Assembly: GCA_964617655.1 (NCBI GenBank)
Contig: CAZTXN010000004.1
Coordinates: 1-39,351, forward strand
Length of the DNA: 39,351 nt
Reading direction: 5' to 3'
DNA from: an uncultured Nitrospiraceae bacterium
Lineage (GTDB): Bacteria; Nitrospirota; UBA9217
Part shown: one piece after another, positions 264 to 29,815 of the stretch
Layout: each line of letters opens with the position of its first letter
How positions within the stretch are numbered: position 1 is the first letter of the stretch
Position numbers and translations under genes: made by a program
The notes under the pieces: generated by a model
Seen by the model: the letters and a program-made list of their open reading frames with translations, nothing else
Told to the model about the DNA's origin: nothing
The model's database searches: none

Positions 264-3544
<3,281 letters not shown>

Positions 3545-3548
<4 letters not shown>

Positions 3549-4027
3549 GCAAGAAAGTACCCATGACGAGGGACGGCTACGACAAGCTCAAGAAGGAGCT
3601 TGACCACCTGCTGAAGGTGGAGCGTCCGAAGAACATCAGGGACATCGAGGAGGCCCGCGGCCACGGCGACCTCTCGGAGAACGCGGAGTACCATGCCGCC
3701 AAGGAGCGGCAGGGGCATATCGATGCGAAGAAGCGCGAGCTCGAGCACAAGCTGGCCCATGCGCAGATCATCGACACCTCCAGGCTCTCGAACGAGAAGG
3801 TGGTCTTCGGCACCACCGTGACCGTTGCGGACACCGAGACCGGCGACACCAAGCGGTTCACCCTCGTCGGCCAGGAGGAGGCGGACATCAAGCGGGGCAA
3901 GATCTCGGTCCAGTCGCCCGTCGGCAAGGCGCTGATCGGCCACAAGGCCGGGGACACCGTCAAGGTCCGGACGCCGGCCCGGCTGGTGGAGTACGAGATC
4001 CAGGAGATCGAGATTGCCGCCGGGTAG
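3545..4027 (+). CDS. greA: Transcription elongation factor GreA
   Basis: [13 protein letters not shown]...[16 protein letters not shown] motif. 160 aa. ATGA overlap with the carB stop. Confidence 0.95.
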
Positions 4028-4859
4028 GCTCCATCAGGCCGAGGTCCGGTCGCATGCTCCCGCCGGGAGCGAATACTTCCGGCTGGTCCTGCGCGCCCCC
4101 GCCCTGGCACGGCAGGCGAAGCCCGGCCACTTCCTCATGCTCCGGGTCACCGGGAACCTGGACCCCCTCCTGGCGCGTCCCTTCGGCATCGCCGCGGTCC
4201 TGGCGAACCGGGAGATCGAGCTCTATTACCGCGTGGCGGGGAGGGGCACCGGTCTGCTGACCGCGGTCCGTCCGGGAGGCGCCCTTACCGCCGTGGGGCC
4301 GCTGGGCAACGGTTTTTCAGCGCCGCCCCGTGGCGCGGCGCCGCTCCTGGTGGCGGGCGGCAGCGGCTTCCCGCCGCTCCTGTTCTTCGCGGCGCGCCAC
4401 GGCGGGAAGGCCCATTTGTTCAGCGGCTCCCGCGACCGGGCCTGCCTGCCCCCGCCGGAGGCGATGCGGCAGTTCCGTGCCCGGGTCCAAGCGGTACACT
4501 ACGCGACCGAGGACGGCAGCCGCGGCGCCTGCGGTTTCGTGACCGATCCGCTCGCCCGCTTCCTGGCCTCCGCCGGGGCGGAGGGACGCTATGTCATCTA
4601 TGCCTGCGGCCCCCGGCCCATGCTGGCAGCGGTGAGCAGGGTCGCGGCGGAGCGGGGCATCACCTGCTACGTCTCGATGGAGGAGCGGATGGCCTGCGGT
4701 CTCGGGGTCTGCATGGGCTGCTCCGTGCCGGCGGCGTCCGGCGGCTACAAGCGCGTCTGCAAGGAGGGGCCGGTCTTCCTTTCCACGGATATTGATTGGG
4801 GCGGTAGCGTACCGCTCGAGCGTGCGAGTGCGGAGTCCGGAGTGCGGAGTGCGGAATGA
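4014..4859 (+). CDS. pyrK: Dihydroorotate dehydrogenase (class 1B) electron-transfer subunit
   Basis: Ferredoxin-reductase-like N-terminus ([18 protein letters not shown]). C-terminal 2Fe-2S cysteines CGLGVCMGC...VCKEGPVF. The only in-frame start ahead of the conserved N-terminus is TTG 4014. The last ~12 codons are encoded by a heptamer array. Confidence 0.85.
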
Positions 4860-4897
4860 AGAGATCCCGATCCGAAATCCGCAATCCGCGATCCGCA
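4821..4897. repeat. Heptamer-array hairpin spanning the pyrK stop and pyrD start
   Basis: Left arm has five 7-mers (CGTGCGA, GTGCGGA, GTCCGGA, GTGCGGA, GTGCGGA; 4821-4855). Right arm has ATCCCG plus ATCCGAA, ATCCGCA, ATCCGCG, ATCCGCA (4864-4897), complementary to TGCGGAT. The loop holds the ATGA start/stop overlap at 4856-4859. Confidence 0.8.
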
Positions 4898-5818
4898 ATT
4901 GCCAGGCCTGATCTCTCCGTCGAGGTCGCGGGCATCAGGCTGAAGAACCCGGTCCTGACCGCGTCCGGCACCTTCGGCTACGGCGAGGAGTACCGGGACA
5001 TCGTGGACCTGAACCGGCTGGGCGGCGTGATCGTGAAGGGCGTGTCGCTCCGGCCGATCGCCGGCAATCCGCCGCCGCGCATCTGGGAGACCCCGTCAGG
5101 CATGCTGAACGCCATCGGCCTCGAGAACCCCGGCGTCGAGGTCTTCCTCCGGGAGAAACTGCCCTACCTCCGCCGGTTCGAGACCGCGGTCATCGTGAAC
5201 GTCTTCGGGTACAGCCGCGAGGAGTATGTCGCGGTGGTGGAGCGGCTGGACGGGGCGCCGGGCGTTGCGGGGCTCGAGGTGAACATCTCCTGCCCGAACG
5301 TGAAGGCCGGCGGCATCGTCTTCGGCACGAACGTCAAGGCGTCATTCGAACTGCTCTCGGCGCTGCGCAGGGCGACGAAGCTGCCGCTGATCGCCAAGCT
5401 CTCCCCGAACGTCACGGACATCACGGAGTTCGCCCGTGCGGCGGCCGACGCGGGCTGCGACGGGCTCTCGCTCATCAACACCCTGCTCGGCATGGCCATC
5501 GACGTCCGCACCCGCAGGCCCCGGCTGGCGAACCGGACCGGAGGCCTGTCGGGCCCGGCCATCCGGCCGGTGGCGGTGCGCATGGTCTGGCAGGCGGCGC
5601 AGGCCGTGCGCCTGCCCATCATCGGGATGGGCGGGATCCTGACGGCCGAGGACGCCCTGGAGTTCATCCTCGCCGGAGCGACGGCCGTCGCCGTGGGGAC
5701 GGCGAACTTCGTGAACCCGCGGGCGACCCTGGACGTGGCCGAGGGGATCGAACGGTTCCTGGCGCAGGAGGGCATCGGGTCGGTGCGGGAGCTGGTGGGC
5801 AAAGCGGGGGCGGAGTGA
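4856..5818 (+). CDS. pyrD: Dihydroorotate dehydrogenase class 1B, catalytic subunit
   Basis: [42 protein letters not shown] motifs. Follows pyrK with an ATGA overlap. Confidence 0.92.
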
Positions 5819-7293
5819 GATTCGCCACCAGCCTCAGGAGCAAGATCATCCTCTCGATCTCCGGGATCCTGGCGGTGATCATCGGCGTCGGCACCTGGAT
5901 CAACATCGGCTACCAGCGCGGCCAGATGGAGTCGGCGCTGCAGGACAACGTCCTCATCATCTCCAATACGATCGAGAAGAGCCTGGCGAACGCCATGCTG
6001 GACGGCAGGAGCAAGGAGGTCCAGCAGATCCTCGAGGCGGTCGGCACCTACCACAACATCCGGGAAGTGCGGATCTTCAGCCCCAACGGCGTGATCCTGA
6101 AGTCGTCGAAGCGGTGGCAGATCGGCAGGAAGGTCGACAGCGCCACCCAGAAATGGTTCCTCGAGGGGAAGTTCAAGAAGCCGATCAAGCGTCGCAGTGA
6201 TGGCGTTTTTTCCGTGCTGTTTCCGATAGAGAACGCGGAGCCATGCTACCGCTGCCACGGCGCCATGGCCCGGCTGAACGGCATCCTTGCCGTGGATGTC
6301 TCCATGGCGGCGACGCAGGAGAAGGTGGGGGAGCTGAGCAAAACCATGATCCTCTGGGCACTGGGCATCACGGCGATCCTGGCGATCTTCCTCTCGCTCT
6401 TCCTGAGCCATTTCGTCACGAACCCGATCCAGGACCTGATGGCCACCATCGAACGCGCGGAGCAGGGGCTCGAGGCGCGGGTTCCGGTCAAGAGCAGCGA
6501 CGACATCGGGAGGCTGGGTGAGGCGTTCAACGCGCTGCTGTCGAAGCTGGAACGCGCGCGCCGCCGGGTGGAGCACTATCACTACGAGCAGATGAAGCGG
6601 GCGGACCGGCTGGCCTCGATCGGCGAGATGGCCGCCGGCATCGCCCATGAGATCAAGAACCCGCTGGCGGGCATCGCGGGCGTGATCCAGGTTCTGAAGA
6701 AAGACCTTTCGCAGGGGGATACAAAACGCGCGGTGCTGGACGAGGTGCTGTCCCAGGTCGAGCGGATGGACAAGGCGGTCCGCAACCTCCTCTCCTTTGC
6801 CCGTCCGCCGGAGCCGAAGATGCAGATGGCGGACGTGAACGAGCTGATCGGGAAGCTGCTGGACTTCCTGGCGCCGCAGTTCGCCAAGTGCGGCATCACG
6901 GCGGAGCGCAGGCTCGCGGCCGGCCTGCCCTGGGTATTCCTGGACCCGGATCTGATGCAGCAGGCGATGTTGAATATCGCATTGAACGCCATCAAGGCCA
7001 TGCCCGAGGGAGGCCGGTTCGCCATCGAGACGCAGGGCCGGCAGGACGGGGAGGGGAGGGGCGGAAGCATCAGCATCGTCCTGTCCGACACCGGGCAGGG
7101 GATCGCGCCGGAGAACCTCGGCCGCATCTTCAATCCTTTTTTCACCACGCGCCAGCAGGGCACGGGGCTGGGCCTCTCGATCACCCAGCGCATCGTGGAG
7201 CAGCATCGGGGCGACATCAGTGTCCAGAGCACGCGGGGCCAAGGCACGGTCTTCACCATCACGCTGCCGGCCTCGGCTTCAGCGGACGACTAG
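5815..7293 (+). CDS. Sensor histidine kinase with a periplasmic CxxCH-containing sensor domain, HAMP, HisKA and HATPase
   Basis: TM1 ([15 protein letters not shown]), ~150 aa loop ending in CYRCH (6244-6258), then TM2. HAMP, H-box [13 protein letters not shown]-box [11 protein letters not shown] start overlaps the pyrD TGA. Confidence 0.9.
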
Positions 7294-7336
7294 ACCGGGC
7301 CTGCCGCTGGTCCCTCCATGAAGGAGCGAACGATCC

Positions 7337-8704
7337 ATGTCCTACAAGATCCTGGTCATTGACGACGAGAAGCTCATTCGCTGGACCCTGGAGCAGCACC
7401 TGGCGAAGGACGGCTATGAGGTCATCACCGCGGACTCGGCCGAGAAGGGGTTCCAGCTGATCACGGACGAGGCGCCGGACCTCGTCCTCCTCGACAACCG
7501 CCTCCCGGAAATGTCCGGTCTGGAGCTGCTCGAGAAGCTCAATCCGGCGGAGCGGGGCGTCATGGTCATCATGATCACCGCGTACGGCCTGGTCGAGACC
7601 GCGGTCAAGGCGATGAAGCTCGGCGCCTACGACTATATCAGCAAACCCTTCAATCTCGAGGAGATCTCCTTCGTCATCCGGAAGGCGCTCGAGGCGGGCT
7701 CGCTGCGGCGCCAGGTGAAGCAGCTCCGGGGCAGGGTGGACTCCATCGTCGGCGAGACCGAGCAGATGAAACGGGTGGAGGACCTCATCATCAAGATCGC
7801 CCGGAGCGAGGCGACCACGGTCCTGATCCAGGGCGAGAGCGGCACGGGCAAGGAACTGGTGGCCAAGGCGATCCATCACGCGAGCTCCCGGGCGGACAAG
7901 CCGTTCCTGGCGATCAACTGCGCCGCGCTGCCGATCACGCTGCTCGAGTCCGAGCTCATGGGCCACGAGAAGGGCGCGTTCACCGACGCGAAGACCGCCA
8001 AGAAGGGGCTGCTGGAGCTGGCCGACGGGGGCACCATGTTCCTCGACGAGATCGGGGACATGGACATGAACATGCAGGCCAAGCTGCTGCGTGTGCTCGA
8101 GGAGCGCTCCTTCCGGCGGGTCGGCGGCGTCCGGGACATCAAGGTGGACGTGCGGATCATCTCGGCCACGAACCAGGACCTCCAGGCGGCGATGAACGAG
8201 GGGGCTTTCCGGAAGGACCTCTTCTACCGGCTCCAGGTCGTGCCCATCCTGCTGCCGCCGCTCCGGGAGCGGGGAGGGGACATCCTGCTGCTGGCCCGCC
8301 ATTTCATGGAGCAGTTCTCCCGCGAGTGCCACCGGAAGGCCGTGGGGATCTCGCCCGAGGCGGAGCAGGTCATGCTCTCCCATTCCTGGCCGGGCAATGT
8401 GCGGGAGCTCAAGAACGTGATCGAGCGCGCCATGATCTTCGATATCGAGGGCGACCTGCTGCCAGAACACCTGCCGCTGGAGCTCATGGAGGCGCAGCAG
8501 GCGCCGGTCCTGCGGTCCGGCGGCCAGTTCACCCTGGACTGCATCACCATCCCCGAGGAGGGGATCTCGATCGAGGACGTGGAGCACGCGCTGGTGAAGA
8601 AGGCGCTCGAGACCGCAGAGGGCAATCAGACCCGGGCCGCCCAGCTCCTGCGGATGCCGCGGGACGCCTTCCGGCGGCGGATGAAGCGGTACGGTCTCGT
8701 CTGA
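7337..8704 (+). CDS. Sigma54-dependent response regulator (NtrC family: REC + AAA+ + Fis-type HTH)
   Basis: KILVIDDE...LLDNRLP receiver. Walker [15 protein letters not shown] (GAFTGA-type sigma54 contact loop). C-terminal [34 protein letters not shown] upstream. Confidence 0.95.
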
Positions 8705-8795
8705 TCCTCCCTGCAGGCTGAGGGAAGATCGATTCTGAGCATCTGCAGGCCATCACCTGTTCCGCCGGTCCCCGGATCGAGGCTGAAGATATCTA

Positions 8796-8821
8796 CTCAG
8801 CTGATGAGCGAAACTGCTCAG
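8796..8821. promoter_or_regulatory. Candidate enhancer (UAS) dyads for the NtrC-type regulator
   Basis: TGAGC-N6-GCTCA at 8805-8820, overlapping CTCA-N5-TGAG at 8796-8808. Further CTGAGC/CTGCAGG copies at 8711-8749. About 90 bp upstream of the -24 element, with an A/T-rich tract (8845-8900) in between. Confidence 0.35.
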
Positions 8822-8900
8822 GCCGCTAGTTCCGTATGGTCTTTCATGATTTTTTTTATTTATATATCAGTTGGTTGTAGGGAAAAGACCAATAAATAGC

Positions 8901-8916
8901 AGGCACATTTATTGCA
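8901..8916 (+). promoter_or_regulatory. Sigma54 (-24/-12) promoter
   Basis: aGGCACatttaTTGCA compared with consensus TGGCAC-N5-TTGCA. GG and GC are exactly 12 nt apart. It is ~70 nt upstream of ATG 8987, which has SD GAGGAG at 8973-8978. Confidence 0.6.
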
Positions 8917-8986
8917 ACCAACAAACAGTTGAACTTCTTTCCTTCCGTGCCCTTACATATCTTTTGCCGCTGAGGAGCCATCCGTC

Positions 8987-10339
8987 ATGGGGAAACGCCT
9001 AGCAGTCGGTGCCAGTTTTGCCTTCCTGCTCGCCCTCTTCACAGTCCTGGTCCTGTCCGCTCCCCAGGAACTGGGTGCGCAGGCCCCGGCAGCAGGGGAC
9101 AGCTGTGTGACAGCAAAGTGCCATGCATCCTTCGGCAAGGGCGCTGCCGTTCATTCGCCGGTCAAGGAAGGCATGTGCGCCGCCTGCCACATGGCGGTGG
9201 CGGACCCCCAGAAGGGATCGAAGCATCCGGGCAACCTGGTCATCACCCTGATGCAGCAGGGCAGCGAGCTCTGCGCCATGTGCCATGGTCAGAAGGGCGC
9301 CAAGAAGGTGGTGCACGCACCGATCATGGGCGGGGACTGCACGTCCTGCCATGATCCGCACCAGTCGGCGCACAAGGGCATGCTGAAGGCCGCGATGCCC
9401 GATCTCTGCTTCCAGTGTCATCCGGACAGTATGGTCAAACAGCCTGTCCTGCATCCGCCCGTGGCCGGCGGAGACTGCTCGTCCTGCCACGACAACCACG
9501 AGAGCGATTTTTCCGGCCGGCTGGTGCAGGACGGGAACGCGCTCTGCTTCATGTGCCATCCGGACAAGGAGGAGGGACTGAAGACCAAGAAGGTGGCCCA
9601 TATGCCGGTGCAGGCGGCCTGCGTCCAGTGCCACAACCCGCATGGCGCCGCCGCGCCGGCCATGCTCCCGGCAGCGGTGCCGGACCTCTGCGCCGGGTGC
9701 CACCCGAACGAGGTCATGATCGGCCGGAGGGCGGTGACGAAGCACGCACCCATGGGTGACGGCAAGAGCTGCCGGAACTGTCATGACCCGCACTTCTCGG
9801 ACCAGCCCAAGCTCCTGCTGACGGCCCAGGCGGCCATGTGCCTTGCCTGCCACGACCGCGAGCTCGAGACCGGGACCGGCAGGATCGCCAACATGAAGGA
9901 CCTGCTCCAGAAGAACAAGAACGCCCACGGCCCGCTCAAAGGCGGGGACTGCGTCTCCTGCCACGGCCCGCACGGCACCGACTACTGGCGGCTGCTGGTG
10001 CGGTACTATCCGGCCGACTTCTACACGCCCTATTCCGACGGGATGTACGCCCTCTGCTTCTCCTGCCATGACAAGGCGGCGTTCGCCGAGCGCCGGACGA
10101 CGAAGGCCACGGGCTTCCGTGACGGGGACAAGAACCTCCACTTCATCCATGTGAACAAGACGGCCAAGGGAAGGAGCTGCCGCGCCTGCCACGAGGTGCA
10201 CGCGGACAGCGACCGCCCGCACCATGTAAAGCAGCATGTGCAGTTCAGCGGATGGGCGATGCCGATGAACTACGCCGCGGGCAAGAACGGCGGGAGCTGC
10301 CTGCCGGGCTGCCACGGAGAGAAACGGTACAGCAGGTAG
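8987..10339 (+). CDS. Secreted multihaem c-type cytochrome (13 CxxCH + one CX4CH + one CX3CH)
   Basis: Signal peptide MGKRLAVGASFAFLLALFTVLVLSAP. Motifs: CVTAKCH, CAACH, CAMCH, CTSCH, CFQCH, CSSCH, CFMCH, CVQCH, CAGCH, CRNCH, CLACH, CVSCH, CFSCH, CRACH, CLPGCH. Alternating LCxxCH / GxCxxCH(D/N)PH pattern typical of paired-CxxCH cytochromes. Confidence 0.9.
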   Translation: MGKRLAVGASFAFLLALFTVLVLSAPQELGAQAPAAGDSCVTAKCHASFGKGAAVHSPVKEGMCAACHMAVADPQKGSKHPGNLVITLMQQGSELCAMCHGQKGAKKVVHAPIMGGDCTSCHDPHQSAHKGMLKAAMPDLCFQCHPDSMVKQPVLHPPVAGGDCSSCHDNHESDFSGRLVQDGNALCFMCHPDKEEGLKTKKVAHMPVQAACVQCHNPHGAAAPAMLPAAVPDLCAGCHPNEVMIGRRAVTKHAPMGDGKSCRNCHDPHFSDQPKLLLTAQAAMCLACHDRELETGTGRIANMKDLLQKNKNAHGPLKGGDCVSCHGPHGTDYWRLLVRYYPADFYTPYSDGMYALCFSCHDKAAFAERRTTKATGFRDGDKNLHFIHVNKTAKGRSCRACHEVHADSDRPHHVKQHVQFSGWAMPMNYAAGKNGGSCLPGCHGEKRYSR

Positions 10340-10378
10340 TTCCGGTCCCCGCTGAGGGACGTTCCGAAAGGAAGCCGA

Positions 10379-12316
10379 ATGGTGATCCGACGACGCGTGA
10401 TGTTTGCAGCTGCAGGTGCGGTCCTGGCGGGACTGCTTCTTCTCCCGGCACTGCCCGTGCGTTCCGCGGACCAGGCCGCTGTGCCCGCGCTTTCCATCCT
10501 TTACCCCAAGCATGAGTCTGCCGTGGGGCGGCGGGTGAACGTGGTGCTCGATCCCCTCACGGACTGGTCCGTGGCGCCCTTCTTCCAGGTCGTGGTGGGC
10601 GGCGCGGAGCATCCGGTGATCGACGCCTCCAGCGGCAGGCATGCGATGCAGGGCGTTCCCCTGGCGCCGGGCATGAACACCATCACCGTGCGGGCGCTCG
10701 CGCCGGCTCCCAAGGACTCCAAGCGGGAAGAGAACAAGTACCGGGTGCTCGCTTCACGCACGCTGGCGGTCTTCAACCGTGAAGGCAGCTTCACGCCGGT
10801 CACCGGCGCCTTCGAACCGCAGTACTATCACACCCGGGAGAACGAGGCGGACTGCTCCGGCTGCCACCGGCTCGAGGCGGAGCAGCAGGACCTCCGGCCG
10901 AAGGGACCGGACGACGTCCTCTGTATCGCCTGCCACCGCGAGGTTCGCAGGGGCAGGCATATCCACGGCCCGGCGGGGGTGGGGAACTGTCTGGCCTGCC
11001 ATGATCCCGAGCTCTTCCCGGTGAAGTACCAGTTCGATACCGTGGACCCCTGGCAGGTGACCAAGACGACGGCGCCGGTCGAGCCCGCGGTCTTCACCGT
11101 CTCGGCCGATGCGCTCTTCCGCCGCCAGAGCGCGGGGTTCGTGAGCGACAGCGTGCCGCCGCTCCCCCGCACCCGGGGCAGGCAGGACGCGGCGAAGGAG
11201 CAGGAGCTCCGCAGGCAGCGCGACGCGGAGGTCGCTGCGCTCAAGGCGAAGGAGCGGGAGCTCTTCCAGCCCTTCCTGGAGTACGTGAAGCAGAACCCGG
11301 GCGACAAGGTCCGCGTCGAGGTCCATGTGGACACCACCGAGCTCCCGGCCATGAAGGACAGGAAGGCGAAGGGATACCGGAGCCACCAGTCGCTGACCGC
11401 GGCGCGTGCGCGGGCGATCCAGAAACTGCTGGCCGCGTACGGCATAGCGGACAAGGAGCAGGTGTCCGTCGTGGGAATGGGAAGCTCCCTGCCCAAGGCG
11501 CCGAACACGACGGCCGAGAATCGGGCGTTGAACAACCGTATCGAGATCGTCGTGCACCCGGCTGATGTGAAGGTCCGGAACAGCCAGAAACTCCCGGTCC
11601 TGGCGGACCGCCGGCGGGTGATCGTGCACATGACCTATACCCAGGGCATTGCCGAGGTGAAGGACCTCAAGTTCATCGAGCGGCTGCCCCCGGGGTTCCA
11701 GTACGTGAAGCGGACCGGCGTCTACCGGGGGAACGCGCTCGACCCGAAGGCCGCGGGCGATGAACTGGTCTGGACGCTGGGAAGCCCGGGCAGCTACTTC
11801 CAGGAGGCCCTGTCCTTCGTGGTGCGGAAGGACCGGGGAGCGAAGGGCGACGTCGGTCCGGCGGCCCGCCTCCGCTTCCTTGCCGGCACGCAGGAACGCT
11901 CCCGGGAGTTCGATCCGCAGAGGCCGCAGAAGAACGGCCTGACCGTTCCCGAGACCTGCAGCAAGTGCCACGGCACGATGCTGACCGGCGCGTATTCGCA
12001 CGGGCCGGCGGCCGCGGGCCTCTGCACGCTCTGCCATGATCCCCATGCCAGCGACTACCGGGCCTGGACGCGAAAACAGTCGTGGCTGCTCTGCACGACC
12101 TGCCACGCGGAGAAGAAGAGCGAAGTGCATGTCATCCGGGGAGTCGTCCGCAACGTCTCCCATCCTACGCGGAAGCATCGTGATCCGTCGCGGCCGGGCA
12201 AGCGCCTGGCCTGCGTGAGCTGCCATTCCCCGCACAGCGCCGGGACGCAGGACCTGCTGAACTTCGGCGCCCGGAGCAAGTTCGAGCTCTGCGGCGTCTG
12301 CCATCCGAAAAAGTAG
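10379..12316 (+). CDS. Chimeric 8-haem cytochrome with internal OmpA-like peptidoglycan-binding and DUF11-like domains
   Basis: - Signal peptide: MFAAAGAVLAGLLLLPALPVRSA.
- N-terminal haem motifs: CSGCH, CIACH, CLACH (nt ~10853-11002).
- Coiled-coil segment, then OmpA-like block VRVEVHVD...SLTAARARAIQKLL...GMGSSLPKAPNTTAENRALNNRIEIVV (nt ~11261-11557).
- DUF11-like block LPPGFQYVKRTG...LVWTLG.
- C-terminal haem motifs: CSKCH, CTLCH, CTTCH, CVSCH, CGVCH. Confidence 0.88.
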   Translation: MVIRRRVMFAAAGAVLAGLLLLPALPVRSADQAAVPALSILYPKHESAVGRRVNVVLDPLTDWSVAPFFQVVVGGAEHPVIDASSGRHAMQGVPLAPGMNTITVRALAPAPKDSKREENKYRVLASRTLAVFNREGSFTPVTGAFEPQYYHTRENEADCSGCHRLEAEQQDLRPKGPDDVLCIACHREVRRGRHIHGPAGVGNCLACHDPELFPVKYQFDTVDPWQVTKTTAPVEPAVFTVSADALFRRQSAGFVSDSVPPLPRTRGRQDAAKEQELRRQRDAEVAALKAKERELFQPFLEYVKQNPGDKVRVEVHVDTTELPAMKDRKAKGYRSHQSLTAARARAIQKLLAAYGIADKEQVSVVGMGSSLPKAPNTTAENRALNNRIEIVVHPADVKVRNSQKLPVLADRRRVIVHMTYTQGIAEVKDLKFIERLPPGFQYVKRTGVYRGNALDPKAAGDELVWTLGSPGSYFQEALSFVVRKDRGAKGDVGPAARLRFLAGTQERSREFDPQRPQKNGLTVPETCSKCHGTMLTGAYSHGPAAAGLCTLCHDPHASDYRAWTRKQSWLLCTTCHAEKKSEVHVIRGVVRNVSHPTRKHRDPSRPGKRLACVSCHSPHSAGTQDLLNFGARSKFELCGVCHPKK

Positions 12317-12317
12317 G

Positions 12318-13379
12318 GTGCAGCAGCCGATGTTTTATGCTATCATGAGGACACGGAAAGGCCCGGACCTGCCGATGCTACAGCGAACATCCCTCATCCT
12401 TGCAATCTGCAGTTCCCTCGCCCTGCCGGGCTGCGCGCTCATCCTGGGAACAAACGATGCTGCCGGACCGCAGGCCGGCGGACCGCGCGTCAGCTATGTG
12501 GAGACGCTCCGGAACCAGGCCAGCTTCGGCGCAGCCCGGTTCCTCGAGACGGACCCGTCGGCCAGCCCGGCGGCCTCGCTCCAGCGGCCGGTCGCGGTGG
12601 CAGCCGATGATTTTCGCGTGTATGCCGCGGACCGCTCCCCGGCCGGCCGGCTCGTCGTCTTCGACCGCCAGGAACGCACCGTGACCTTCTTGACCGGCCC
12701 GACGCCCACGGCGGTCACCTCGTTCACCTATCTGGAGCCGGCCGCTGTCGCCGTGGACGGGACCGGCGCCATCTATGTCGCTGATGCCCATCAGGGCATG
12801 GTGGTCGTTCTCGACAGGAACGGGGCGCTGCTGCTCACCATCGGCCGCCGCGGCGAGCTCTCGTATCCGGCGGGCCTTGCTCTCGACGCGAAGCGCGGGC
12901 GGCTGTTCGTGGCGGACAAGCATGCCGGACTTGTCCGCGTCCTCACCCTGCGGGGCGAGCCGCTCTTCGAGATCGGCAGGTCAGGTCGGAAGGACGACCT
13001 GCGGACTCCCGTTGCCGTCGCCCTGGACAAGGACGGCTCGATCGCGGTCCTCGACAGCGGGAGAAGGAGCGTCCATCTCTACGGTCCCGAGGGAGCGCAT
13101 CTCAGGACGTTCCGGATCAGCGCCGGCAGGGAGGAGCAGCCGGCGCGGCCTGCAGGCATCGCCGTGGACAGCGCGGGACGCATCTCGGTCACCGATACCG
13201 CGACGAACAGCATACTGGTATTCGACCGGGAGGGTTCCCTGCTCGCGCGTTGGGGCGGGATGGGAAGCCGCCAGGACGAGTTCTGGTCTCCCGCAGGGAT
13301 CTTCATCGGCTCCCGGGACATGGTCTACATCGCCGACCACATGAACGGCCGCATCCAGGTCTATCAGTACGAAAAATGA
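12318..13379 (+). CDS. NHL-repeat six-bladed beta-propeller lipoprotein (paralog 1)
   Basis: Six repeats of the type PxGxAVDxxGxxYVADxxNxRIxVF, for example PAAVAVDGTGAIYVADAHQGMVVVLD and SPAGIFIGSRDMVYIADHMNGRIQVYQY. Lipobox-like LALPGC. Start is ambiguous (GTG 12318, ATG 12330/12345/12375). 1 nt after the upstream stop. Confidence 0.85.
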   Translation: MQQPMFYAIMRTRKGPDLPMLQRTSLILAICSSLALPGCALILGTNDAAGPQAGGPRVSYVETLRNQASFGAARFLETDPSASPAASLQRPVAVAADDFRVYAADRSPAGRLVVFDRQERTVTFLTGPTPTAVTSFTYLEPAAVAVDGTGAIYVADAHQGMVVVLDRNGALLLTIGRRGELSYPAGLALDAKRGRLFVADKHAGLVRVLTLRGEPLFEIGRSGRKDDLRTPVAVALDKDGSIAVLDSGRRSVHLYGPEGAHLRTFRISAGREEQPARPAGIAVDSAGRISVTDTATNSILVFDREGSLLARWGGMGSRQDEFWSPAGIFIGSRDMVYIADHMNGRIQVYQYEK

Positions 13380-14404
13380 TGCTTCTGAAAGGTCCGATCC
13401 CGATGCACGGCGTGCTCGCAGCATGCGCGGCCGCCGTCCTTCTCGTTGCCTGCGCCCAGCCTCCTCCCCGGCCGGAACCCGACAATCTCATCTGGCCCCT
13501 GCCGCCGGCCCAGCCGCGGATCAAGTATGTCCGCTCGATCTACACCGAGGACGATCTCGGCCGGGAGTATTCCTTCCTGGAGAAGCTGTTCGGGAAGGAT
13601 TACTACGACGGCATGGCCCGGCCCTACGGAGTGAGCATCGGTCGCGGCAAGCTCTTCGTCTCCGATGTGATGCTTCGGCGCGTCCTGGTCTTCGACCTCG
13701 AACAAAAGCGCATGTCCAACGTGGGCGGAGAGGGCGGATTCCAGCTGCCGGCGGCCGCGGCGCCGGACGCGGCCGGCAATCTCTACGTGGCCGACACCGG
13801 CGGCTCCAAGGTGGTGGTCTATGATCCCCGGGGCGCCTACCGGACCGCGTTCCTGCTTGATGAGGGAAGGCCGGTCGGTCTGGCGGTGAACAACGCACTG
13901 TCCCGGCTCTATGTGGTGGACCGCGCAGGACACCGCGTGGTGGTCTTCGGGCTGGACGGCTCGCTGCTCTTCCAGTTCGGCGGCCGGGGCGCCGCGGAGG
14001 GAAAGTTCAACATACCTCTCGACATCGCCATCGAGCCTGACGGGACGGTCCATCTGCTGGACAGCGGCAACTTTCGCGTGCAGTCCTTCACGCCTGACGG
14101 CGCCTTTCTGTCCGCCTTCGGCGCCGTGGGCGACGCGCCGGGCATGTTCGCGAATCCCAAGGGCATCGCGGTCGATTCCGACGGCCACCTCTACGTGACC
14201 GATGCGGCCTTCTCGAACTTCCAGATCTTCGACCGCAGGGGGAACATCCTGCTGCATGTGGGCGAGGCGGGCGTCCTGCCGGGATCTCTTCGGATGCCCG
14301 CGGGGATCGCGATCGATGAGCAGGACCGCATCTATGTCGCCGACCAGATGAACGCACGGATCCAGGTGTTCCAGTACCTGAAGGGGGCCGGGGGGACGCG
14401 GTGA
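13376..14404 (+). CDS. NHL-repeat six-bladed beta-propeller lipoprotein (paralog 2)
   Basis: Lipobox LLVAC after MMLLKGPIPMHGVLAACAAAV. Six NHL repeats, for example NPKGIAVDSDGHLYVTDAAFSNFQIFD and MPAGIAIDEQDRIYVADQMNARIQVFQY. ATGA overlap with paralog 1. The ORF-track start at 13250 was rejected. Confidence 0.85.
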   Translation: MMLLKGPIPMHGVLAACAAAVLLVACAQPPPRPEPDNLIWPLPPAQPRIKYVRSIYTEDDLGREYSFLEKLFGKDYYDGMARPYGVSIGRGKLFVSDVMLRRVLVFDLEQKRMSNVGGEGGFQLPAAAAPDAAGNLYVADTGGSKVVVYDPRGAYRTAFLLDEGRPVGLAVNNALSRLYVVDRAGHRVVVFGLDGSLLFQFGGRGAAEGKFNIPLDIAIEPDGTVHLLDSGNFRVQSFTPDGAFLSAFGAVGDAPGMFANPKGIAVDSDGHLYVTDAAFSNFQIFDRRGNILLHVGEAGVLPGSLRMPAGIAIDEQDRIYVADQMNARIQVFQYLKGAGGTR

Positions 14405-16215
14405 TGGAAAAGAAAGCGGCCGTACGCGGCATCATCCAGTCCCTCGGCCTGGTCTTCGGGGACATCGGCACCAGCCCCATCTATACGATCACGGTCATCT
14501 TCCTGATCACTGCCAAGACCGAGGAGAACGTCATCGGCGTGCTCTCGCTCATCGCCTGGACGGTCATCCTGCTCGTGACGGTCAAGTATGCATGGCTTGC
14601 CATGGGACTGGGAAAACGGGGTGAAGGCGGGATCATCGTGCTGACCGAGATCCTCACGCCCTACCTGACCTCGGCCCGCCAGGCCGCCTTCGTGACGTTC
14701 ATCTCCTACGTGGGCATCTCGCTCTTCGTGGGCGACGGGGTCATCACGCCCGCCATCAGCATCCTCTCGGCCGTGGAGGGGCTGCTGCTGATCCCCGGAC
14801 TCGAGGATACGCCGCAGACCGTCCTCATCCTGGTCGCGGGCGTGATCGCCATCGTGCTCTTTTCGGTCCAGCGGAAGGGCACCGAGAAGGTGGCGGGCTC
14901 CTTCGGGCCGATCATGCTGGTCTGGTTCCTGGTGCTGGCCGCTTCGGGGATTGCGTCCATCATCGAGATGCCGTCGGTGATGAAGGCTCTGAGCCCGGTG
15001 TACGGGATCCGGTTCCTCGACCAGAACATCCTGGCCGGATTCTTCATCCTCGCGGAGGTGATCCTCTGCGCAACGGGCGGCGAGGCGCTCTACGCGGACA
15101 TGGGCCACCTGGGAGGCGAACCCATCCGGCGCGCCTGGAACTTCGTCTTCCCGGCCCTCATCCTGAGCTACTTCGGCCAGGGGGCCTTCCTTGCCCAGCA
15201 TCCGGAGACGAAGAACGTGCTGTTCGAGATGATCTACTCCCAGGCGCGGATCCTCTACATCCCGTTCCTGCTCCTGAGCATCAGCGCGACCATTATCGCA
15301 TCCCAGGCGATGATCAGCGGCATGTTCTCCCTCGTCTTCCAGGGCATCATGACCAGGATCATGCCGATCCTGAAGGTCGACTTCACGTCCCACGAGCGTC
15401 AGTCGCAGATCTATATCGGCACGGTGAACTGGGCGCTGCTCATTGCGGTGCTCTTCATCATCGTGGAGTTCGGCGCCTCCAGCAAACTTGCGGTGGCCTA
15501 CGGCCTCGCGGTCACCGGCACCATGACCGTCACCGGCATCATGATGATCTGGATCTTCCTGAAACGGGGGCAGCTTGTCCGCGCCTGGGCCTCGGTGCTC
15601 GTGACCCTGATCGCTTTCGTCTACCTGCTCTCGAACACCACCAAGATCCCGCACGGCGGGTACTGGTCCCTGGTCATCGCCGCGATCCCCTTCGGGGTGA
15701 TCCTCCTGTATACGATCGGCCAGCGCAGGCTCTACCGGGCCATGCAGCCGCTCCCCCAGGACGTCTTCCTGCTGAGCTACAACCAGATCTATGCCGCGAT
15801 GCCCAAGATCCGGGGAACGGCGCTCTTCTTCGCCAAGGACCCCCGGGAGATGCCGCCCTATGTCGTCCACACGATGTTCAAGAACCACATCATCTACGAG
15901 GACAATATCATCGTCTCGATCGTCCGGCGCCAGGACCCCTTCGGCGTCACCGGGTTCTTCAAGGACGACCTGGCGCCCGGCCTCCGTTCCTTCGAGATCC
16001 AGGTGGGCTACATGGAGGTCATCGACGTGGACGATATCCTGCGCGACAACGGGATGAACGAGAAGGCCATCTTCTACGGCGTCGAGGATATCCTGTCCGG
16101 CAACATCTTCTGGAAGGCCTTCTCGGCCATGAAGAAGCTGACCCCGAACATCGTGCAGTTCTACAAGCTTCCCTACAACAAGCTGCACGGCGTCGTGACG
16201 CGCGTGGAGATGTAG
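14404..16215 (+). CDS. kup: Kup/HAK/KT-family K+ transporter (copy 1)
   Basis: GLVFGDIGTSPIYT signature, ~12 TM core, GGEALYADMGHLG, cytoplasmic C-terminal domain. ATG 14404 overlaps the NHL-2 TGA (TGATG). GTG 14401 is an alternative start. Confidence 0.93.
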   Translation: MEKKAAVRGIIQSLGLVFGDIGTSPIYTITVIFLITAKTEENVIGVLSLIAWTVILLVTVKYAWLAMGLGKRGEGGIIVLTEILTPYLTSARQAAFVTFISYVGISLFVGDGVITPAISILSAVEGLLLIPGLEDTPQTVLILVAGVIAIVLFSVQRKGTEKVAGSFGPIMLVWFLVLAASGIASIIEMPSVMKALSPVYGIRFLDQNILAGFFILAEVILCATGGEALYADMGHLGGEPIRRAWNFVFPALILSYFGQGAFLAQHPETKNVLFEMIYSQARILYIPFLLLSISATIIASQAMISGMFSLVFQGIMTRIMPILKVDFTSHERQSQIYIGTVNWALLIAVLFIIVEFGASSKLAVAYGLAVTGTMTVTGIMMIWIFLKRGQLVRAWASVLVTLIAFVYLLSNTTKIPHGGYWSLVIAAIPFGVILLYTIGQRRLYRAMQPLPQDVFLLSYNQIYAAMPKIRGTALFFAKDPREMPPYVVHTMFKNHIIYEDNIIVSIVRRQDPFGVTGFFKDDLAPGLRSFEIQVGYMEVIDVDDILRDNGMNEKAIFYGVEDILSGNIFWKAFSAMKKLTPNIVQFYKLPYNKLHGVVTRVEM

Positions 16216-16244
16216 TTCACGCCGCAGCTGCGAAAGGTCCCGGG

Positions 16245-18074
16245 ATGCCGGGAGACATGAACACGAACTGGACAGCGCCCTTCCGGGGCACCGTGAAGTC
16301 CCTCGGCCTGGTCTTCGGCGACATCGGCACAAGCCCCATCTATACCCTTACCGTCGTCTTCCTCCTGACCCGGCCCACGGAGCAGCATGTCATCGGCGTG
16401 CTCTCCCTCGTCTTCTGGACGCTCGTCCTGCTCGTCACCGTCCAGTATGCCTGGCTGGCCACCAGCCTGGGAAAGCGCGGAGAGGGCGGGACCATCGTGC
16501 TCCGGGAGATCCTCGCGCCGATGCTGCGATCCGGCCGCCAGGCCGCGTTCGTGACCGCCCTGACCTATATCGGGATATCGCTCATGATCGGCGACGGCGT
16601 CATCACGCCGGCCATCAGCATCCTTTCCGCCGTGGAGGGCATGCTGCTGATACCGGGCCTTGCGGGGACCGGCCGATGGGTCCTGATCCTGATCGCAGGC
16701 GCCATCGCCCTGACGCTCTTCCTGGTGCAGCGGCAGGGGACGGAGAAGGTCGCGGCGGCATTCGGCCCGGTCATGGCCCTCTGGTTCATCGTGCTCGCAC
16801 TCTCCGGCGCGGCATCCATCGTCCGGACGCCGTCGGTGCTCACGGCGGTGAACCCCCAGCACGCTGCGGCATTCCTGGCGGAGAACGGCGTGGCTGGGTT
16901 CTTCATCCTGTCCGAGGTGGTGCTCTGCGCCACCGGAGGCGAGGCGCTCTATGCCGATATGGGACATCTGGGGCGCAGGCCGATCGTGCTGGCATGGCAC
17001 TTCGTGTTCACGGCGCTGGTGGTCAATTATATGGGCCAGGGAGCTTACCTGGTGCGGAACCCGGAGGCAAAGAACGTCCTGTTCGAGATGATCTATCAGC
17101 AGGCCAGCGCGCTCTACATCCCGTTCCTGGTCCTCTCGGTCCTGGCCACGATCATCGCTTCCCAGGCCATGATCAGCGGCATGTTCTCCATCGTCTACCA
17201 GGGGATCGCGACCCGCATCCTTCCCATGCTGCGCATCGCCTATACCTCGGTGGAGCGGCGGTCGCAGATCTATATCGGTGCGGTGAACTGGTTTCTGCTG
17301 GGGTCGGTGCTCTTCATCATGGTGGAGTTCCAGGAGTCGAGCAGGCTGGCCGCCGCCTACGGACTTGCGGTGACCGGGACCATGACCCTGACCGGCATCA
17401 TGATGACCTGTATCTTCCGCCTGCAGCGGAAGTACGGCCGCATGGCGGCGGCGATGCTGGTTACCGCGGTTTCCGCCGTCTATCTGCTCTCGAACACCAC
17501 GAAGATCCCGCATGGCGGGTACTGGTCGCTCATCATCGCGGCGCTGCCGCTCTGCGTCATCCTGATCTATACGCAAGGCCAGCGAAAGCTCTATGAGGAG
17601 CTTCGTCCGATGCCGTTCGAAGTGTTCCTGCCGAGCTACCAGCAGCTCTACCAGGGGATGTGCCGCATTCCGGGCACGGCGCTCTTCTTCGCCAAGGACC
17701 CGATGACGGTGCCGCCCTATCTGTCGCACACGATGATCAAGAACAACATTCTCTACGAGACCAATATCATCGTATCCATCCTCCGGCGGGAGGATCCCTT
17801 CGGCGTGGCGGCGTACTTCAAGGACGATCTGGCGCCCGGCCTGCGGGTGTTCGAGGTCCAGCTGGGCTACATGGAGGTCCCGGACCTGGAGGCGCTCCTC
17901 CGGGAGGCGGGCATATCGGAAAAAGCGATATTCTACGGCGTCGAGGACATCTATGCCTCGAACTGCCTCTGGCAGACTTTTTCCGTCATCAAGAAGCTCA
18001 CCCCGTCGCTCGTTCAGTTCTATCAGCTTCCCTCCAACAGGCTGCATGGCGTGGTCACCAAGGTCGAGATGTAG
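16245..18074 (+). CDS. kup: Kup/HAK/KT-family K+ transporter (copy 2, tandem paralog)
   Basis: Same signatures (GLVFGDIGTSPIYT, GGEALYADMGHLG, NTTKIPHGGYWSL). Collinear with copy 1 along its full length. 29 nt after copy 1. Confidence 0.93.
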   Translation: MPGDMNTNWTAPFRGTVKSLGLVFGDIGTSPIYTLTVVFLLTRPTEQHVIGVLSLVFWTLVLLVTVQYAWLATSLGKRGEGGTIVLREILAPMLRSGRQAAFVTALTYIGISLMIGDGVITPAISILSAVEGMLLIPGLAGTGRWVLILIAGAIALTLFLVQRQGTEKVAAAFGPVMALWFIVLALSGAASIVRTPSVLTAVNPQHAAAFLAENGVAGFFILSEVVLCATGGEALYADMGHLGRRPIVLAWHFVFTALVVNYMGQGAYLVRNPEAKNVLFEMIYQQASALYIPFLVLSVLATIIASQAMISGMFSIVYQGIATRILPMLRIAYTSVERRSQIYIGAVNWFLLGSVLFIMVEFQESSRLAAAYGLAVTGTMTLTGIMMTCIFRLQRKYGRMAAAMLVTAVSAVYLLSNTTKIPHGGYWSLIIAALPLCVILIYTQGQRKLYEELRPMPFEVFLPSYQQLYQGMCRIPGTALFFAKDPMTVPPYLSHTMIKNNILYETNIIVSILRREDPFGVAAYFKDDLAPGLRVFEVQLGYMEVPDLEALLREAGISEKAIFYGVEDIYASNCLWQTFSVIKKLTPSLVQFYQLPSNRLHGVVTKVEM

Positions 18075-18115
18075 ATCTCCTCTCTGTGCCGTTCTTCGGG
18101 CAGCGTCGGGTCGCA

Positions 18116-18144
18116 TTGCATTCTCCCGCGGCCTGTGCTACAGT
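18116..18144 (+). promoter_or_regulatory. Candidate sigma70 promoter (TTGCAT-17-TACAGT)
   Basis: Hexamers at 18116-18121 and 18139-18144 with a 17 nt spacer, upstream of the cupin gene. Confidence 0.3.
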
Positions 18145-18185
18145 CGGGGCATCGAGGGGCCTGCTATCCGGGAAAGGGTGCGGTC

Positions 18186-18515
18186 ATGCGGATCTTTGAC
18201 GTTGCAGAAAAGGTTGCCGGCTCGGGCGAGTACATCCTGGGCGCGGACGCCACCGGCAGTCATGCCTGTTACCTTATCTACGGCGTGCTGCGGCCAGGCG
18301 AGGAGGGGCGGGAGCTGCGGCCGGGAAGCGGCCATGAAGAGATGGTGCTCTGTCTCTCGGGTGAACTGCGCCTGACCGGGGCATGCACGGGCTCCCTGCG
18401 GGCGGGCCAGGCGGTCCATCTGCGGGGCGAGGAGCGCTGTCTCGCAGCGAATCCCGGTGCTGCCGAGGCTCGGTACGTCATCGCAGGCGGTCATTCCAGT
18501 GAAGGACATCACTGA
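18186..18515 (+). CDS. Small cupin-fold protein
   Basis: MRIFDV...GSGHEEMVLCLSGELRLT...GQAVHL pattern typical of single-domain cupins. SD GAAAGGGTG lies before ATG 18186. Confidence 0.6.
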   Translation: MRIFDVAEKVAGSGEYILGADATGSHACYLIYGVLRPGEEGRELRPGSGHEEMVLCLSGELRLTGACTGSLRAGQAVHLRGEERCLAANPGAAEARYVIAGGHSSEGHH

Positions 18516-18603
18516 CCGCGCCTGAAGGAGCGGTTCGCAGGGAGCGGGAGCGGTCCCGGACGGCTGCGTCGCGTTCGCAGGAAGGGCAGGGCAGGGGAGG
18601 AAC

Positions 18604-20233
18604 ATGGGAGGAGCGCGCACTGACGACGGCCAGGACTGGCTGGTCGTCTACAAGAAGCGCATCATCATCGGCATCGTCGCCATCCTGACGCTGACCATCG
18701 TCCTGACCCTGTTCTTCATCGTCTGCACCATGCGCCAGCGGCTGATGGAGGAGAGCAGGCACCGGGCCGAGGAGCTTGGCACGGTGCTGCACTCCAGCCT
18801 CTCCCATCTCATGGAGGCGCGGGACCCCGACCGGATGCAGCGGACGTTGGTGGCCGTGGGCCGGGGAGATACGACGATCCTTCGAGCGGCCATCATCGAC
18901 AACCGCGGCCGGATCGCCTACTCTTCGAACGAGCGGGAGGTCGGGTCGGTGGTCGACCGGGCGGCGGACCCCTCCTGCACCGGCTGCCACCGCGGCACCG
19001 AGGTCACGACCCACGAGACCACGACCACCCTGACGCTGCATGGCGAGCAGGCACTGCGGTACGTGCATATCATCCCGAACGAGCCGTCCTGTCATGCCTG
19101 CCATCCGCCCTCCGTGCGGATCAACGGCAAGCTGATCATCGACCGTTCGCTCGAGCCCACCCGGACGCTGGTGGGCGCCATCGTCGTCATCATCTCGGGG
19201 CTGGGCGTCGTCTGCCTCGCCATCCTCATCCCGTTCCTCTGGAGGATCCTCTCCCGGGGCGTCAATACCTACATCGACGAGATCCGCCTGCGGTCGGCCG
19301 AACTCGGGATGCTCTATAACGCCGTGGACCGGCTGAGCGCCACGATCGAGTTCGAGGCCCTGAAGCGCGTCATCATCGAGATCATCAGCGAGACGCTGGA
19401 TGCGGACGAAGTGGACATGGTGCTGCCGAGCGAGTACAAGGACCTCGGCGCAACGGTCTGGAGCAGGATGGACGGAGCTATCGCGCGGAAGAAGGTGGAG
19501 CAGGGAGCGATGCTGCACACGGTCATCCGGCGGTGGCTCGACGGCGGGCTGACGGAGCTCGAGCTGGACCGGTCGGGACGGGAGATCGTGGCGCCGGTCT
19601 CGAAGGCCGGGAACCGCGTGGCCCTCATCGTGGTCCGGTCGGGCGAGACGGGCTTCACGGCGGCCCAGCTGCCGCTCCTGCGCGCCATGGCGAACCATAT
19701 CGCCGTGGCCTTCGAGAACGCCACGCTCTACCAGATGGCCATCACGGACGAGCTGACCGGGCTCTACTCGAACCGTCATTTCCGCCATACGATCATCCGC
19801 AAGTACGCGGCGTTCCAGGAGTTCGGCGAGAAGATGACGCTGCTCATGGCGGACATCGACAACTTCAAGCGGATCAACGATACCTACGGCCATCCGGCAG
19901 GGGACGCCATCCTGAAGGACGTGGGCAGGTGCATCCTGAACTCGATCCGCGAGGACGACCTGGCCTTCCGGTACGGCGGCGAGGAGTTCGCGGTCATCCT
20001 GCCCGCCACGGACATCCCCGCCGGCGAGGCGGTGGCGGAGCGCATGCGTGCCCTGATCGCCCATTTCCCCTTCAAGGCGGACCAGCACGTGCTGACCGTG
20101 ACCGTGAGCATCGGGGTCTCGGCCTGGCCGGCGAGCGCCGAGAACGTGAAGGACCTGGTCATGGAAGCCGACAAGGCGCTCTATGAGGCGAAGCACACGG
20201 GCAAGGACCGGGTGAAGGTGAGGAAGAAAGAGT

Positions 20234-20235
<2 letters not shown>
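18604..20235 (+). CDS. Diguanylate cyclase: periplasmic 2x CxxCH sensor domain - TM - GAF - GGDEF
   Basis: TM1 IIIGIVAILTLTIVLTLFFIV. CTGCH (18976-18990) and CHACH (19090-19104) precede TM2. GAF region follows. Active GGEEF with an RxxD I-site (REDD-x5-GGEEF). SD GGGGAGG. Confidence 0.9.
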
Positions 20236-29721: not shown

Positions 29722-29815
29722 GGGGCCTCCCTTCCTGGGGGTGATATGAGGGAATTGTAGCGGCAAGTGAGGCGTTCCGTCAAGGTACGGATCACCACCT
29801 GACGGGCCGCCGGGA

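Follow-up and report, generated by a model that had tools for sequence, protein, structure and literature searches.

The locus described here lies within a stretch of 39,351 nt from an uncultured Nitrospirota bacterium (hereafter referred to as the window). It consists of a sensor kinase gene and an NtrC-type regulator gene, followed by two genes for multihaem cytochromes c (cyt1 and cyt2), two for NHL-repeat propellers (NHL1 and NHL2), and two for Kup-type transporters (kup1 and kup2). The open reading frames (ORFs) of the window were listed and translated, and the proteins were scanned with the Pfam and NCBIfam models. Overall, approximately 95 related loci (designated by L and a number) were compared; the window proteins were scored by tblastn against 89 loci, and the gene tables of the loci were read. 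The features of the locus are summarized in Table 1.

Table 1. Genes and regulatory elements of the cytochrome/propeller locus (positions are those of the window).
Feature	Position	Strand	Basis or remark
Haem-c sensor histidine kinase (predicted)	5815..7293	+	Pfam PF21563, HAMP, HisKA, HATPase_c
NtrC-type sigma-54 enhancer-binding response regulator	7337..8704	+	REC, AAA+ and HTH_8 (Pfam)
Palindrome TGAGCGAAACTGCTCA, candidate enhancer (upstream activating sequence)	8805..8820	.	Sole match in window; phylogenetic footprint
Sigma-54 -24/-12 promoter (predicted), AGGCAC-N5-TTGCA	8901..8916	+	70 nt 5′ of cyt1 ATG
cyt1, periplasmic 14-haem cytochrome c, 450 aa	8987..10339	+	Paired_CXXCH_1, E = 2.2e-72
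cyt2, 8-haem cytochrome c chimera, 645 aa	10379..12316	+	Pfam OmpA, Paired_CXXCH_1, Cytochrome_C7
NHL1, propeller lipoprotein	12375..13379	+	Pfam NHL, E = 1.8e-25; lipobox LPGC
NHL2, six-bladed propeller lipoprotein	13376..14404	+	Pfam NHL, E = 3.7e-31; lipobox LVAC
Kup1, Kup/HAK/KT transporter	14404..16215	+	K_trans, E = 1.6e-150, and K_trans_C
Kup2, Kup/HAK/KT transporter, tandem paralogue	16245..18074	+	68% identical to Kup1
109-aa ORF, family-less, conserved	18186..18515	+	Between kup2 and GGDEF gene
Diguanylate cyclase (GGDEF), periplasmic sensor with two CxxCH	18604..20235	+	GGDEF, E = 2.8e-45; weak PF21563 match

The region 8987–18074 contains six ORFs, all in the same direction. The initial annotation described them as tightly packed with no terminator between them, and inspection of the ORFs and their junctions largely bears this out: cyt1 and cyt2 are separated by a spacer of 39 nt (10340–10378), NHL1 and NHL2 share an ATGA overlap (13376–13379), NHL2 and kup1 share a TGATG overlap (14402–14406), and kup2 follows kup1 after 29 nt. 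An alternative GTG start of kup1 at 14401 would yield a 4-nt overlap, as found in all the orthologous loci. The 1-nt gap claimed between cyt2 and NHL1 (12316/12318) holds if NHL1 starts at GTG 12318, but with the likelier ATG at 12375 the gap becomes 58 nt. We consider that NHL1 probably starts at this ATG and that GTG 12318 is unlikely, because of the conserved lipoprotein signal peptide MLQRTSLILAICSSLALPGC and because the two genes are 41–72 nt apart in the orthologous loci. A terminator scan of the window returned eight weak matches against 6.2 ± 2.2 expected, none of them convincing and none in the spacers of the six genes, and no intrinsic terminator was found 3′ of kup2.

Dense, co-directional packing on the plus strand extends from carB (189) as far as the GGDEF gene (20235), and the GTG start of the kinase gene overlaps the stop codon of pyrD by 4 nt (5815–5818); therefore, tight packing alone is weak evidence of a functional unit. 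The kinase/pyrD overlap is kept in L008 (4006–4009), L017 (1701–1704), and L021 (5526–5529), i.e., in four loci including the window, and the two-component genes seem to be co-transcribed with carB-greA-pyrK-pyrD. The kup genes are predicted to be co-transcribed with the operon and are probably translationally coupled to NHL2, and the transcript possibly continues past kup into the small ORF and the putative haem-sensing diguanylate cyclase.

A conserved core of two cytochromes and two propeller lipoproteins

The gene order cyt1-cyt2-NHL1-NHL2 was found in every locus that encodes the cyt2-type chimera and has enough flanking sequence. The chimera loci thus keep a four-gene core, and the conserved co-occurrence expected from the initial annotation was confirmed to this extent. 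Two neighbourhoods were observed upstream of the core: carB-greA-pyrK-pyrD-kinase-regulator, and a divergent FliG-like/MotA/MotB/MotB/TPR operon with an RCC1-repeat gene. Downstream, there were three: Kup followed further on by GGDEF-RmuC-NadA, an integrase-like gene with a CBS/poly(A) polymerase-family gene, and Kup-Kup-UvrC. As far as gene order can tell, the functional core is made up of cyt1, cyt2, NHL1, and NHL2, and kup is a lineage-specific downstream addition.

The first cytochrome has 13 CxxCH motifs and one CxxxxCH motif. In a profile search, its residues 55–275 aligned to the PDB chain 6r2q_A (E = 1.9e-15), a multihaem match of 333 residues, which we take to be MtrA, chain A of the Shewanella Mtr complex (6R2Q). 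The label returned for this chain was “cystathionine beta-synthase,” a misfit for a multihaem match. Against the DmsE family (TIGR03508), cyt1 scored 120 bits, which is below the cut-off of 192. On these similarities, cyt1 is predicted to be a haem wire of the “paired CXXCH” kind, with 14 sites and a likeness to MtrA and DmsE. The 6r2q_A chain was also matched by the C-terminal module of cyt2, and both cytochromes have Sec-type signal peptides without a lipobox Cys.

In the AlphaFold2 model, cyt2 consists of a signal peptide, a beta-sandwich, a 3-haem c7-like module, a long helix with an OmpA-like domain, another beta-sandwich, and a 5-haem module, so that three and five CxxCH motifs lie on either side of the OmpA-like domain. 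All eight motifs are invariant in 38 homologues. The OmpA-like domain was recognized by Pfam at 39.6 bits (cut-off 27.2); the best Foldseek matches of the insert were the periplasmic domains of MotB, linker helix included, and its profile matched solely OmpA-like domains in PDB. Among the 38 homologues, D318 is mostly conserved, R343 is present in at least 90%, and R387 is invariant. From their motif position (HxD...LSxxRA) rather than from a structural alignment, we assume that D318 and R343 are the Asp/Arg pair that contacts diaminopimelic acid. The retention of these candidate peptidoglycan-binding residues supports the earlier proposal that the OmpA-like domain may act as a peptidoglycan anchor. 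We also considered whether the anchor had been derived from the neighbouring MotB genes found in some loci, and rejected this origin, the identity of only about 31% being generic OmpA-like similarity.

We found approximately 40 full-length homologues of the chimera, with identities of 45–76%, all from metagenomes or metagenome-assembled genomes (MAGs); those with a named source all belong to Nitrospirota, and they are annotated as hypothetical or as “cytochrome c3 family.” When 1.84 billion representatives at 50% identity were searched with a profile, only about five had this architecture in full length, whereas well over 100 proteins of approximately 320–340 aa matched in two separate stretches, corresponding to the 3-haem and the 5-haem module. 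Because these short proteins carry both haem modules without the insert architecture, cyt2 is, on the modelled domain order, a widespread 8-haem cytochrome that appears to have gained an N-terminal beta-sandwich, a helix/OmpA-like insert, and a second beta-sandwich. The chimera as a single query against genome contigs yielded one weak and irrelevant match (L001), and our literature search found no paper on a multihaem cytochrome with an internal OmpA/MotB-type domain.

The lipobox Cys of NHL1 is invariant in eight orthologues, in which no His and no other Cys is invariant, and the lipobox Cys of NHL2 is likewise kept in its orthologues, as is the N-terminal extension of this protein at residues 34–80. 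Both proteins thus conform to the propeller lipoproteins of the initial annotation. Of all the proteins of the cluster, NHL2 is conserved best, with a mean column identity of 70% vs. 54% for the cytochromes. Its AlphaFold2 model (predicted local distance difference test score, 91.8) has six four-stranded blades, with an N-terminal strand closing the propeller, and the best Foldseek matches were the NHL domains of Thin, TRIM2/3/71, and Brat, with target-normalised template modelling scores of 0.82–0.87 for those of Thin and TRIM2. The only His that is invariant in NHL2 is H186, there is no Cys beyond the lipobox, and neither NHL alignment contains a catalytic or metal cluster of conserved His, Cys, and acidic residues. 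An enzymatic role of the NHL proteins was on these grounds set aside and kept as a minor rival. NHL2-type propellers (2917 matches at E ≤ 1e-20) far outnumber the chimera. In distant loci, the two kinds of genes alternate (cytochrome-NHL-cytochrome-NHL), suggesting that each cytochrome has its own propeller. Most likely, the NHL lipoproteins are membrane-tethered scaffolds, one for each cytochrome.

Sigma-54 promoter, candidate enhancer palindrome, and signalling genes

The element AGGCACATTTATTGCA (8901–8916) is the only sequence in the 39 kb that matches TGGCAC-N5-TTGCW with at most one mismatch. A -24/-12 element lies 54–80 nt 5′ of cyt1 in 13 loci, including L002, L003, L004, L007, L008, L009, L010, L012, L016, L019, L021, and L092. 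Approximately 95 nt 5′ of the -24 element is a perfect palindrome, TGAGC-N6-GCTCA, and the exact palindrome occurs 5′ of cyt1 in 12 loci. When the spacers upstream of cyt1 in six loci were aligned as a phylogenetic footprint (mean identity, 60%), the only invariant elements were the palindrome, the GG-N10-GC/TTGCA element, the Shine-Dalgarno sequence, and the ATG. The region thus has the predicted hallmarks of NtrC-type control, namely a promoter with correct -24 GG/-12 GC spacing and an upstream candidate enhancer. The kinase and regulator genes adjoin the cluster in the window and in eight further loci (L002, L008, L014, L015, L017, L018, L019, and L021); the promoter and palindrome are retained even in loci where they do not, which argues that the cluster belongs to a sigma-54 regulon with a conserved enhancer.

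GEMM-type riboswitches precede cytochrome genes in Geobacter. A riboswitch or leader RNA 5′ of cyt1 was considered here as well and dismissed, as no Rfam match was found in the window or the spacer. In L003, L005, L007, L008, L009, L090, and L095, a family-less ORF of approximately 100 aa (about 300 nt) is encoded on the minus strand just 5′ of cyt1, where it separates the promoter region of this gene from the neighbour upstream; the 282-nt spacer of the window is too short for it.

The kinase has a single CxxCH (C144) in a periplasmic PAS-like segment between two transmembrane segments, and this sensor matches PF21563 with 29.9 bits (cut-off 27). In the alignment, neither the CxxCH nor Met61 varies among the orthologues or in the GGDEF protein's paralogous sensor, which is homologous to the kinase sensor (E = 5e-9) with the CxxCH and one Met aligned. 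The GGDEF gene is also found downstream of Kup in L003, L007, L008, and L011. The sensor fold, the one conserved CxxCH, and the Met resemble the haem-c PAS-like sensors of Geobacter (GSU0582/GSU0935 type; PF21563, Mcp40H-20_sensor), which reportedly bind c-type haem according to structures from 2008. The outputs of the Geobacter proteins are chemoreceptors, whereas those of the present locus are a histidine kinase and a diguanylate cyclase.

The regulator contains a sigma-54 AAA+ domain (Pfam Sigma54_activat, E = 3.4e-70), Response_reg, and HTH_8. Its orthologues are 73–81% identical, with a nearly identical helix-turn-helix (HTH). The sigma-54 contact loop reads GAFTDA instead of GAFTGA; the F and T are retained, and the variant is conserved in the orthologues. 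The initial annotation had named a -24/-12 element, a kinase with a periplasmic CxxCH, and a sigma-54 enhancer-binding regulator as the wiring of the locus. All three were recovered, the first as unique in the window and kept in position in the related loci, and the footprint and domain assignments lend support to this part of the interpretation. By its adjacency, the regulator at 7337–8704 would act at the palindrome at 8805–8820. Elsewhere in the window, a second histidine kinase (DUF4118) and a sigma-54 activator with the loop GSFTGA are encoded at 31954–34391 (+) and a third kinase with a CHASE8 sensor at 37712–39253 (+); therefore, several sigma-54 two-component systems lie close together.

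Proposed mechanism and rival explanations

We interpret the locus, with slightly better than even confidence, as a sigma-54-dependent operon whose four-gene core would form a porin-less electron-transfer system of the periplasm and outer envelope. In this scheme, the haem-c sensor kinase would report the periplasmic redox or ligand state and signal to the NtrC-type activator, which would bind the TGAGC-N6-GCTCA enhancer and open the -24/-12 promoter 5′ of cyt1. The resulting transcript would encode a 14-haem wire (cyt1) and an 8-haem protein (cyt2) that its MotB-type domain would fix to the cell wall, and the two lipoprotein propellers would tether and organise both cytochromes; in this lineage, the transcript would run on into the two kup genes. 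The genes present, the identities of their domains, and the conserved state of the core, promoter, and palindrome are observations. We infer that the operon is transcribed, that the cytochromes are loaded with haem and paired with the propellers, and that cyt2 binds peptidoglycan, and the partners of electron flow and its direction are inferred as well.

Several observations weigh against this interpretation. The operon encodes no quinol oxidoreductase or dehydrogenase and no outer-membrane component. The complete electron-transfer “machine” of the initial annotation is not upheld: because an inner-membrane quinol oxidoreductase and an outer-membrane exit are missing from the operon, it cannot be called a complete conduit. 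In an unchanged chromosomal setting, L090 (9006–11044) retains NHL1-NHL2 and L091 (10001–10996) NHL2 alone, both lacking the two large cytochromes; this may reflect a role of the propellers that does not depend on the cytochromes, or the two loci may be deletion variants. The pairing of regulator and enhancer is argued from adjacency, with a second kinase/activator pair present at 31954–34391, and L005 and L006 have no promoter directly upstream of cyt1. The relatives all come from MAGs or metagenomes and carry the annotation “hypothetical.” In Desulfovibrio ferrophilus, which has comparable clusters, Fe(III) oxide reduction was not impaired when such cytochromes were deleted (PMC9769857); the role of these cytochromes is disputed, and the function of the multihaem cytochrome/NHL-propeller class is unsettled.

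A more far-reaching version of our interpretation is that the anchored cyt2, cyt1, and the propellers form a fixed, porin-less, wall-spanning conduit under a haem-sensing sigma-54 circuit and tied to ion-motive components, i.e., Kup in this lineage and a FliG/MotAB-like stator in relatives. We regard this version as improbable; if it is true, Nitrospirota would have envelope redox machines of an architecturally new class.

Both Kup proteins carry the GDIGTSPIYT signature, the K_trans membrane domain, and the C-terminal domain, and with 384–387 bits vs. 883 they fall below the cut-off of the Escherichia coli Kup equivalog; their K+ transport is a prediction. The initial annotation proposed that the operation of the system is coupled to K+ flux. 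If Kup were integral in this sense, the flux of K+ (with H+) would be mechanistically coupled to electron transfer, e.g., as charge or pH compensation. The 4-nt NHL2/kup overlap speaks for such a role, being conserved in the window and seven loci (L003, L005, L007, L008, L009, L011, and L095), with Kup also following NHL2 in L020. The tandem pair is retained in five loci (the window, L008, L009, L020, and L095; L003, L005, L007, and L011 have a single copy), the six-gene block keeps Kup even where UvrC is the downstream neighbour (L095), and Kup is the only inner-membrane protein of the operon. However, Kup is absent from L002, L016, L021/L022, and L092, the deeper-branching clusters whose chimeras are the most divergent from that of the window and in which NHL2 is followed by integrase-like or HEAT/HD genes. 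Furthermore, Kup orthologues of 72–73% identity occur without nearby cytochrome or NHL genes in Nitrospirota MAGs (L093 and L094); these are as close as the cluster-linked ones, and one adjoins the same RmuC-NadA neighbours. The existence of both Kup-less clusters and cluster-less Kup argues that Kup was resident in these genomes and was joined to the operon within a single sub-lineage, and that it does not define the cluster. In addition, Kup has no redox cofactor motif, the synteny of the lineage also preserves plainly unrelated genes (RmuC, NadA, and Era), and we found no paper linking Kup, NHL, and cytochromes. We consider an integral role of Kup to be improbable, and the proposed K+ coupling is not supported.

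The core could alternatively be a periplasmic redox enzyme, detoxification, or electron-storage complex, in which the propellers bind a substrate or metal and the cytochromes deliver or absorb electrons under envelope redox stress. In favour of such a complex, neither a porin nor a lipoprotein or extracellular cytochrome is encoded; sensor-driven sigma-54 induction is typical of stress or conditional regulons, the NHL-fold enzymes PAL and streptogramin lyase are among the weaker structural matches, NHL2 is better conserved than the cytochromes, and the NHL pair persists without cytochromes in L090. Nevertheless, one invariant His and no Cys in NHL2, and neither in NHL1, leave no active-site-like cluster, the closest structural counterparts, those of TRIM and Brat, are NHL domains of the interaction type, and a 14-haem MtrA-like wire with an anchored 8-haem protein looks like a device for long-range transfer. 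We judge this alternative to be unlikely and keep it as a minor rival. Another alternative, which we hold to be very improbable, is that the cytochrome/propeller module and the FliG-like/MotA/MotB/MotB/TPR stator-type module form a single proton-motive-force-linked envelope machine within one sigma-54 regulon. The stator-like operon lies divergently beside the cluster in L003, L005, L007, L009, L016, and L090 and co-directionally in L092. A separate GG-N10-GC element (GGTAT-N5-TTGCA) belongs to this operon in L005/L006/L016, where the TGAGC-N6-GCTCA palindrome is likewise found upstream, hinting at a shared sigma-54 regulon; the cyt2 anchor is also MotB-like in the Foldseek comparison. On the other hand, the operon is absent from the window and from the other loci with an adjacent kinase/regulator, the palindrome is near the stator operon in few loci only, the association could be positional, and the similarity of the cyt2 anchor to the neighbouring MotB domains (about 31% identity) is generic. 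The stator-like operon is located at about 900–5900 on the minus strand in the divergent loci and at 1–2068 in L092, and its proteins match NCBIfam flagellar-stator types, with all scores below the cut-off.

Relation to known systems and significance

The closest likeness was found to the clusters DFE_0448–0451 and DFE_0461–0465 of D. ferrophilus IS5, which combine several multihaem cytochromes, described as MtrA-like and as periplasmic or associated with the outer membrane, and NHL propellers without a porin (PMC5815863); a stabilising effect of the propellers on the cytochrome complex has been proposed (PMC5815863, PMC9769857). The likeness, drawn from the published description, is that multihaem cytochrome genes stand directly beside NHL-propeller genes without a porin gene. 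The present locus differs in that one cytochrome has an internal MotB-type domain and two beta-sandwiches, in that there are exactly two propellers, both lipoproteins, and in the sigma-54/haem-sensor two-component wiring and the Kup fusion of this lineage. The Uet (undecahaem electron transfer) cluster of “Candidatus Tenderia electrophaga” and Gallionella is similar by description in that UetH and UetI, both NHL-repeat proteins, are encoded together with multihaem cytochromes and trihaem cytochromes of the c7 type. It additionally has a porin of the beta-barrel type (UetC), a peptidyl-prolyl isomerase, a cupredoxin, and a tetrahaem cytochrome that is extracellular; the present locus has none of these four. 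Within our data, cytochrome and NHL genes adjoin each other in all the chimera loci and in many distant loci. Consequently, the view that the locus does not correspond to a described system has to be revised: porin-less cytochrome/NHL clusters have been published for D. ferrophilus IS5 (PMC5815863), and NHL proteins are part of the Tenderia Uet cluster.

The MtrCAB, Pcc, and Ext conduits of Shewanella and Geobacter share with the locus the paired-CXXCH haem wires (cyt1 and the C-terminal module of cyt2). As the initial annotation had noted, however, there is no porin: no porin-like gene was found in 5815–20235 or in at least 20 orthologous loci. The locus also lacks a lipoprotein or extracellular decahaem cytochrome, and cyt1 is under the DmsE-family cut-off. 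Membership in the porin-cytochrome conduits was rejected on the porin and the extracellular lipoprotein cytochrome. A 439-aa ORF at 28525–29844 (−), with a signal peptide, a C-terminal Trp, and no Pfam match, is the only candidate for a beta-barrel of the outer membrane; 10 kb and a change of strand separate it from the cluster, and a link is not evident. The resemblance to TolB/Pal suggested earlier, a six-bladed propeller with an OmpA-like peptidoglycan binder, is superficial and was likewise rejected. The propellers match only NHL and not TolB/PD40, the OmpA-like domain lies inside a cytochrome and is closest to the C-terminal domains of MotB, with Pal matches only at E ~1e-3, and the domain scans found no TolQRA genes in the window. 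A 2026 paper on a multihaem selenoenzyme of sulfur respiration proved to be unrelated to the cluster.

These comparisons indicate that the porin-less pairing of multihaem cytochromes with NHL propellers is already known, and that what is new here is the predicted peptidoglycan-binding domain inside a cytochrome, the conserved sigma-54/enhancer wiring, and the operon fusion with Kup. Clusters of cytochromes and NHL propellers are turning up in many anaerobes and have been proposed as porin-independent routes of electron exchange. The present locus offers three handles on them: the cytochrome's own predicted anchor would fix the position of the haem chain in the envelope, the two cytochromes are apparently paired with two propellers, and the footprinted sigma-54 promoter and enhancer, together with a candidate haem sensor, predict when the system is switched on. 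With an anchored cytochrome and a clean regulatory footprint, an obscure but widespread class becomes experimentally approachable. With the K+ coupling that had been proposed, a misleading lead is eliminated, and the FliG/MotAB-like, putatively sigma-54-driven neighbourhood of the relatives emerges as an intriguing lead outside the window. Finally, the 109-aa ORF downstream of kup2, which has no Pfam or NCBIfam match, is found at the same position in L008 and L005, with identities of 72 and 65%, respectively.

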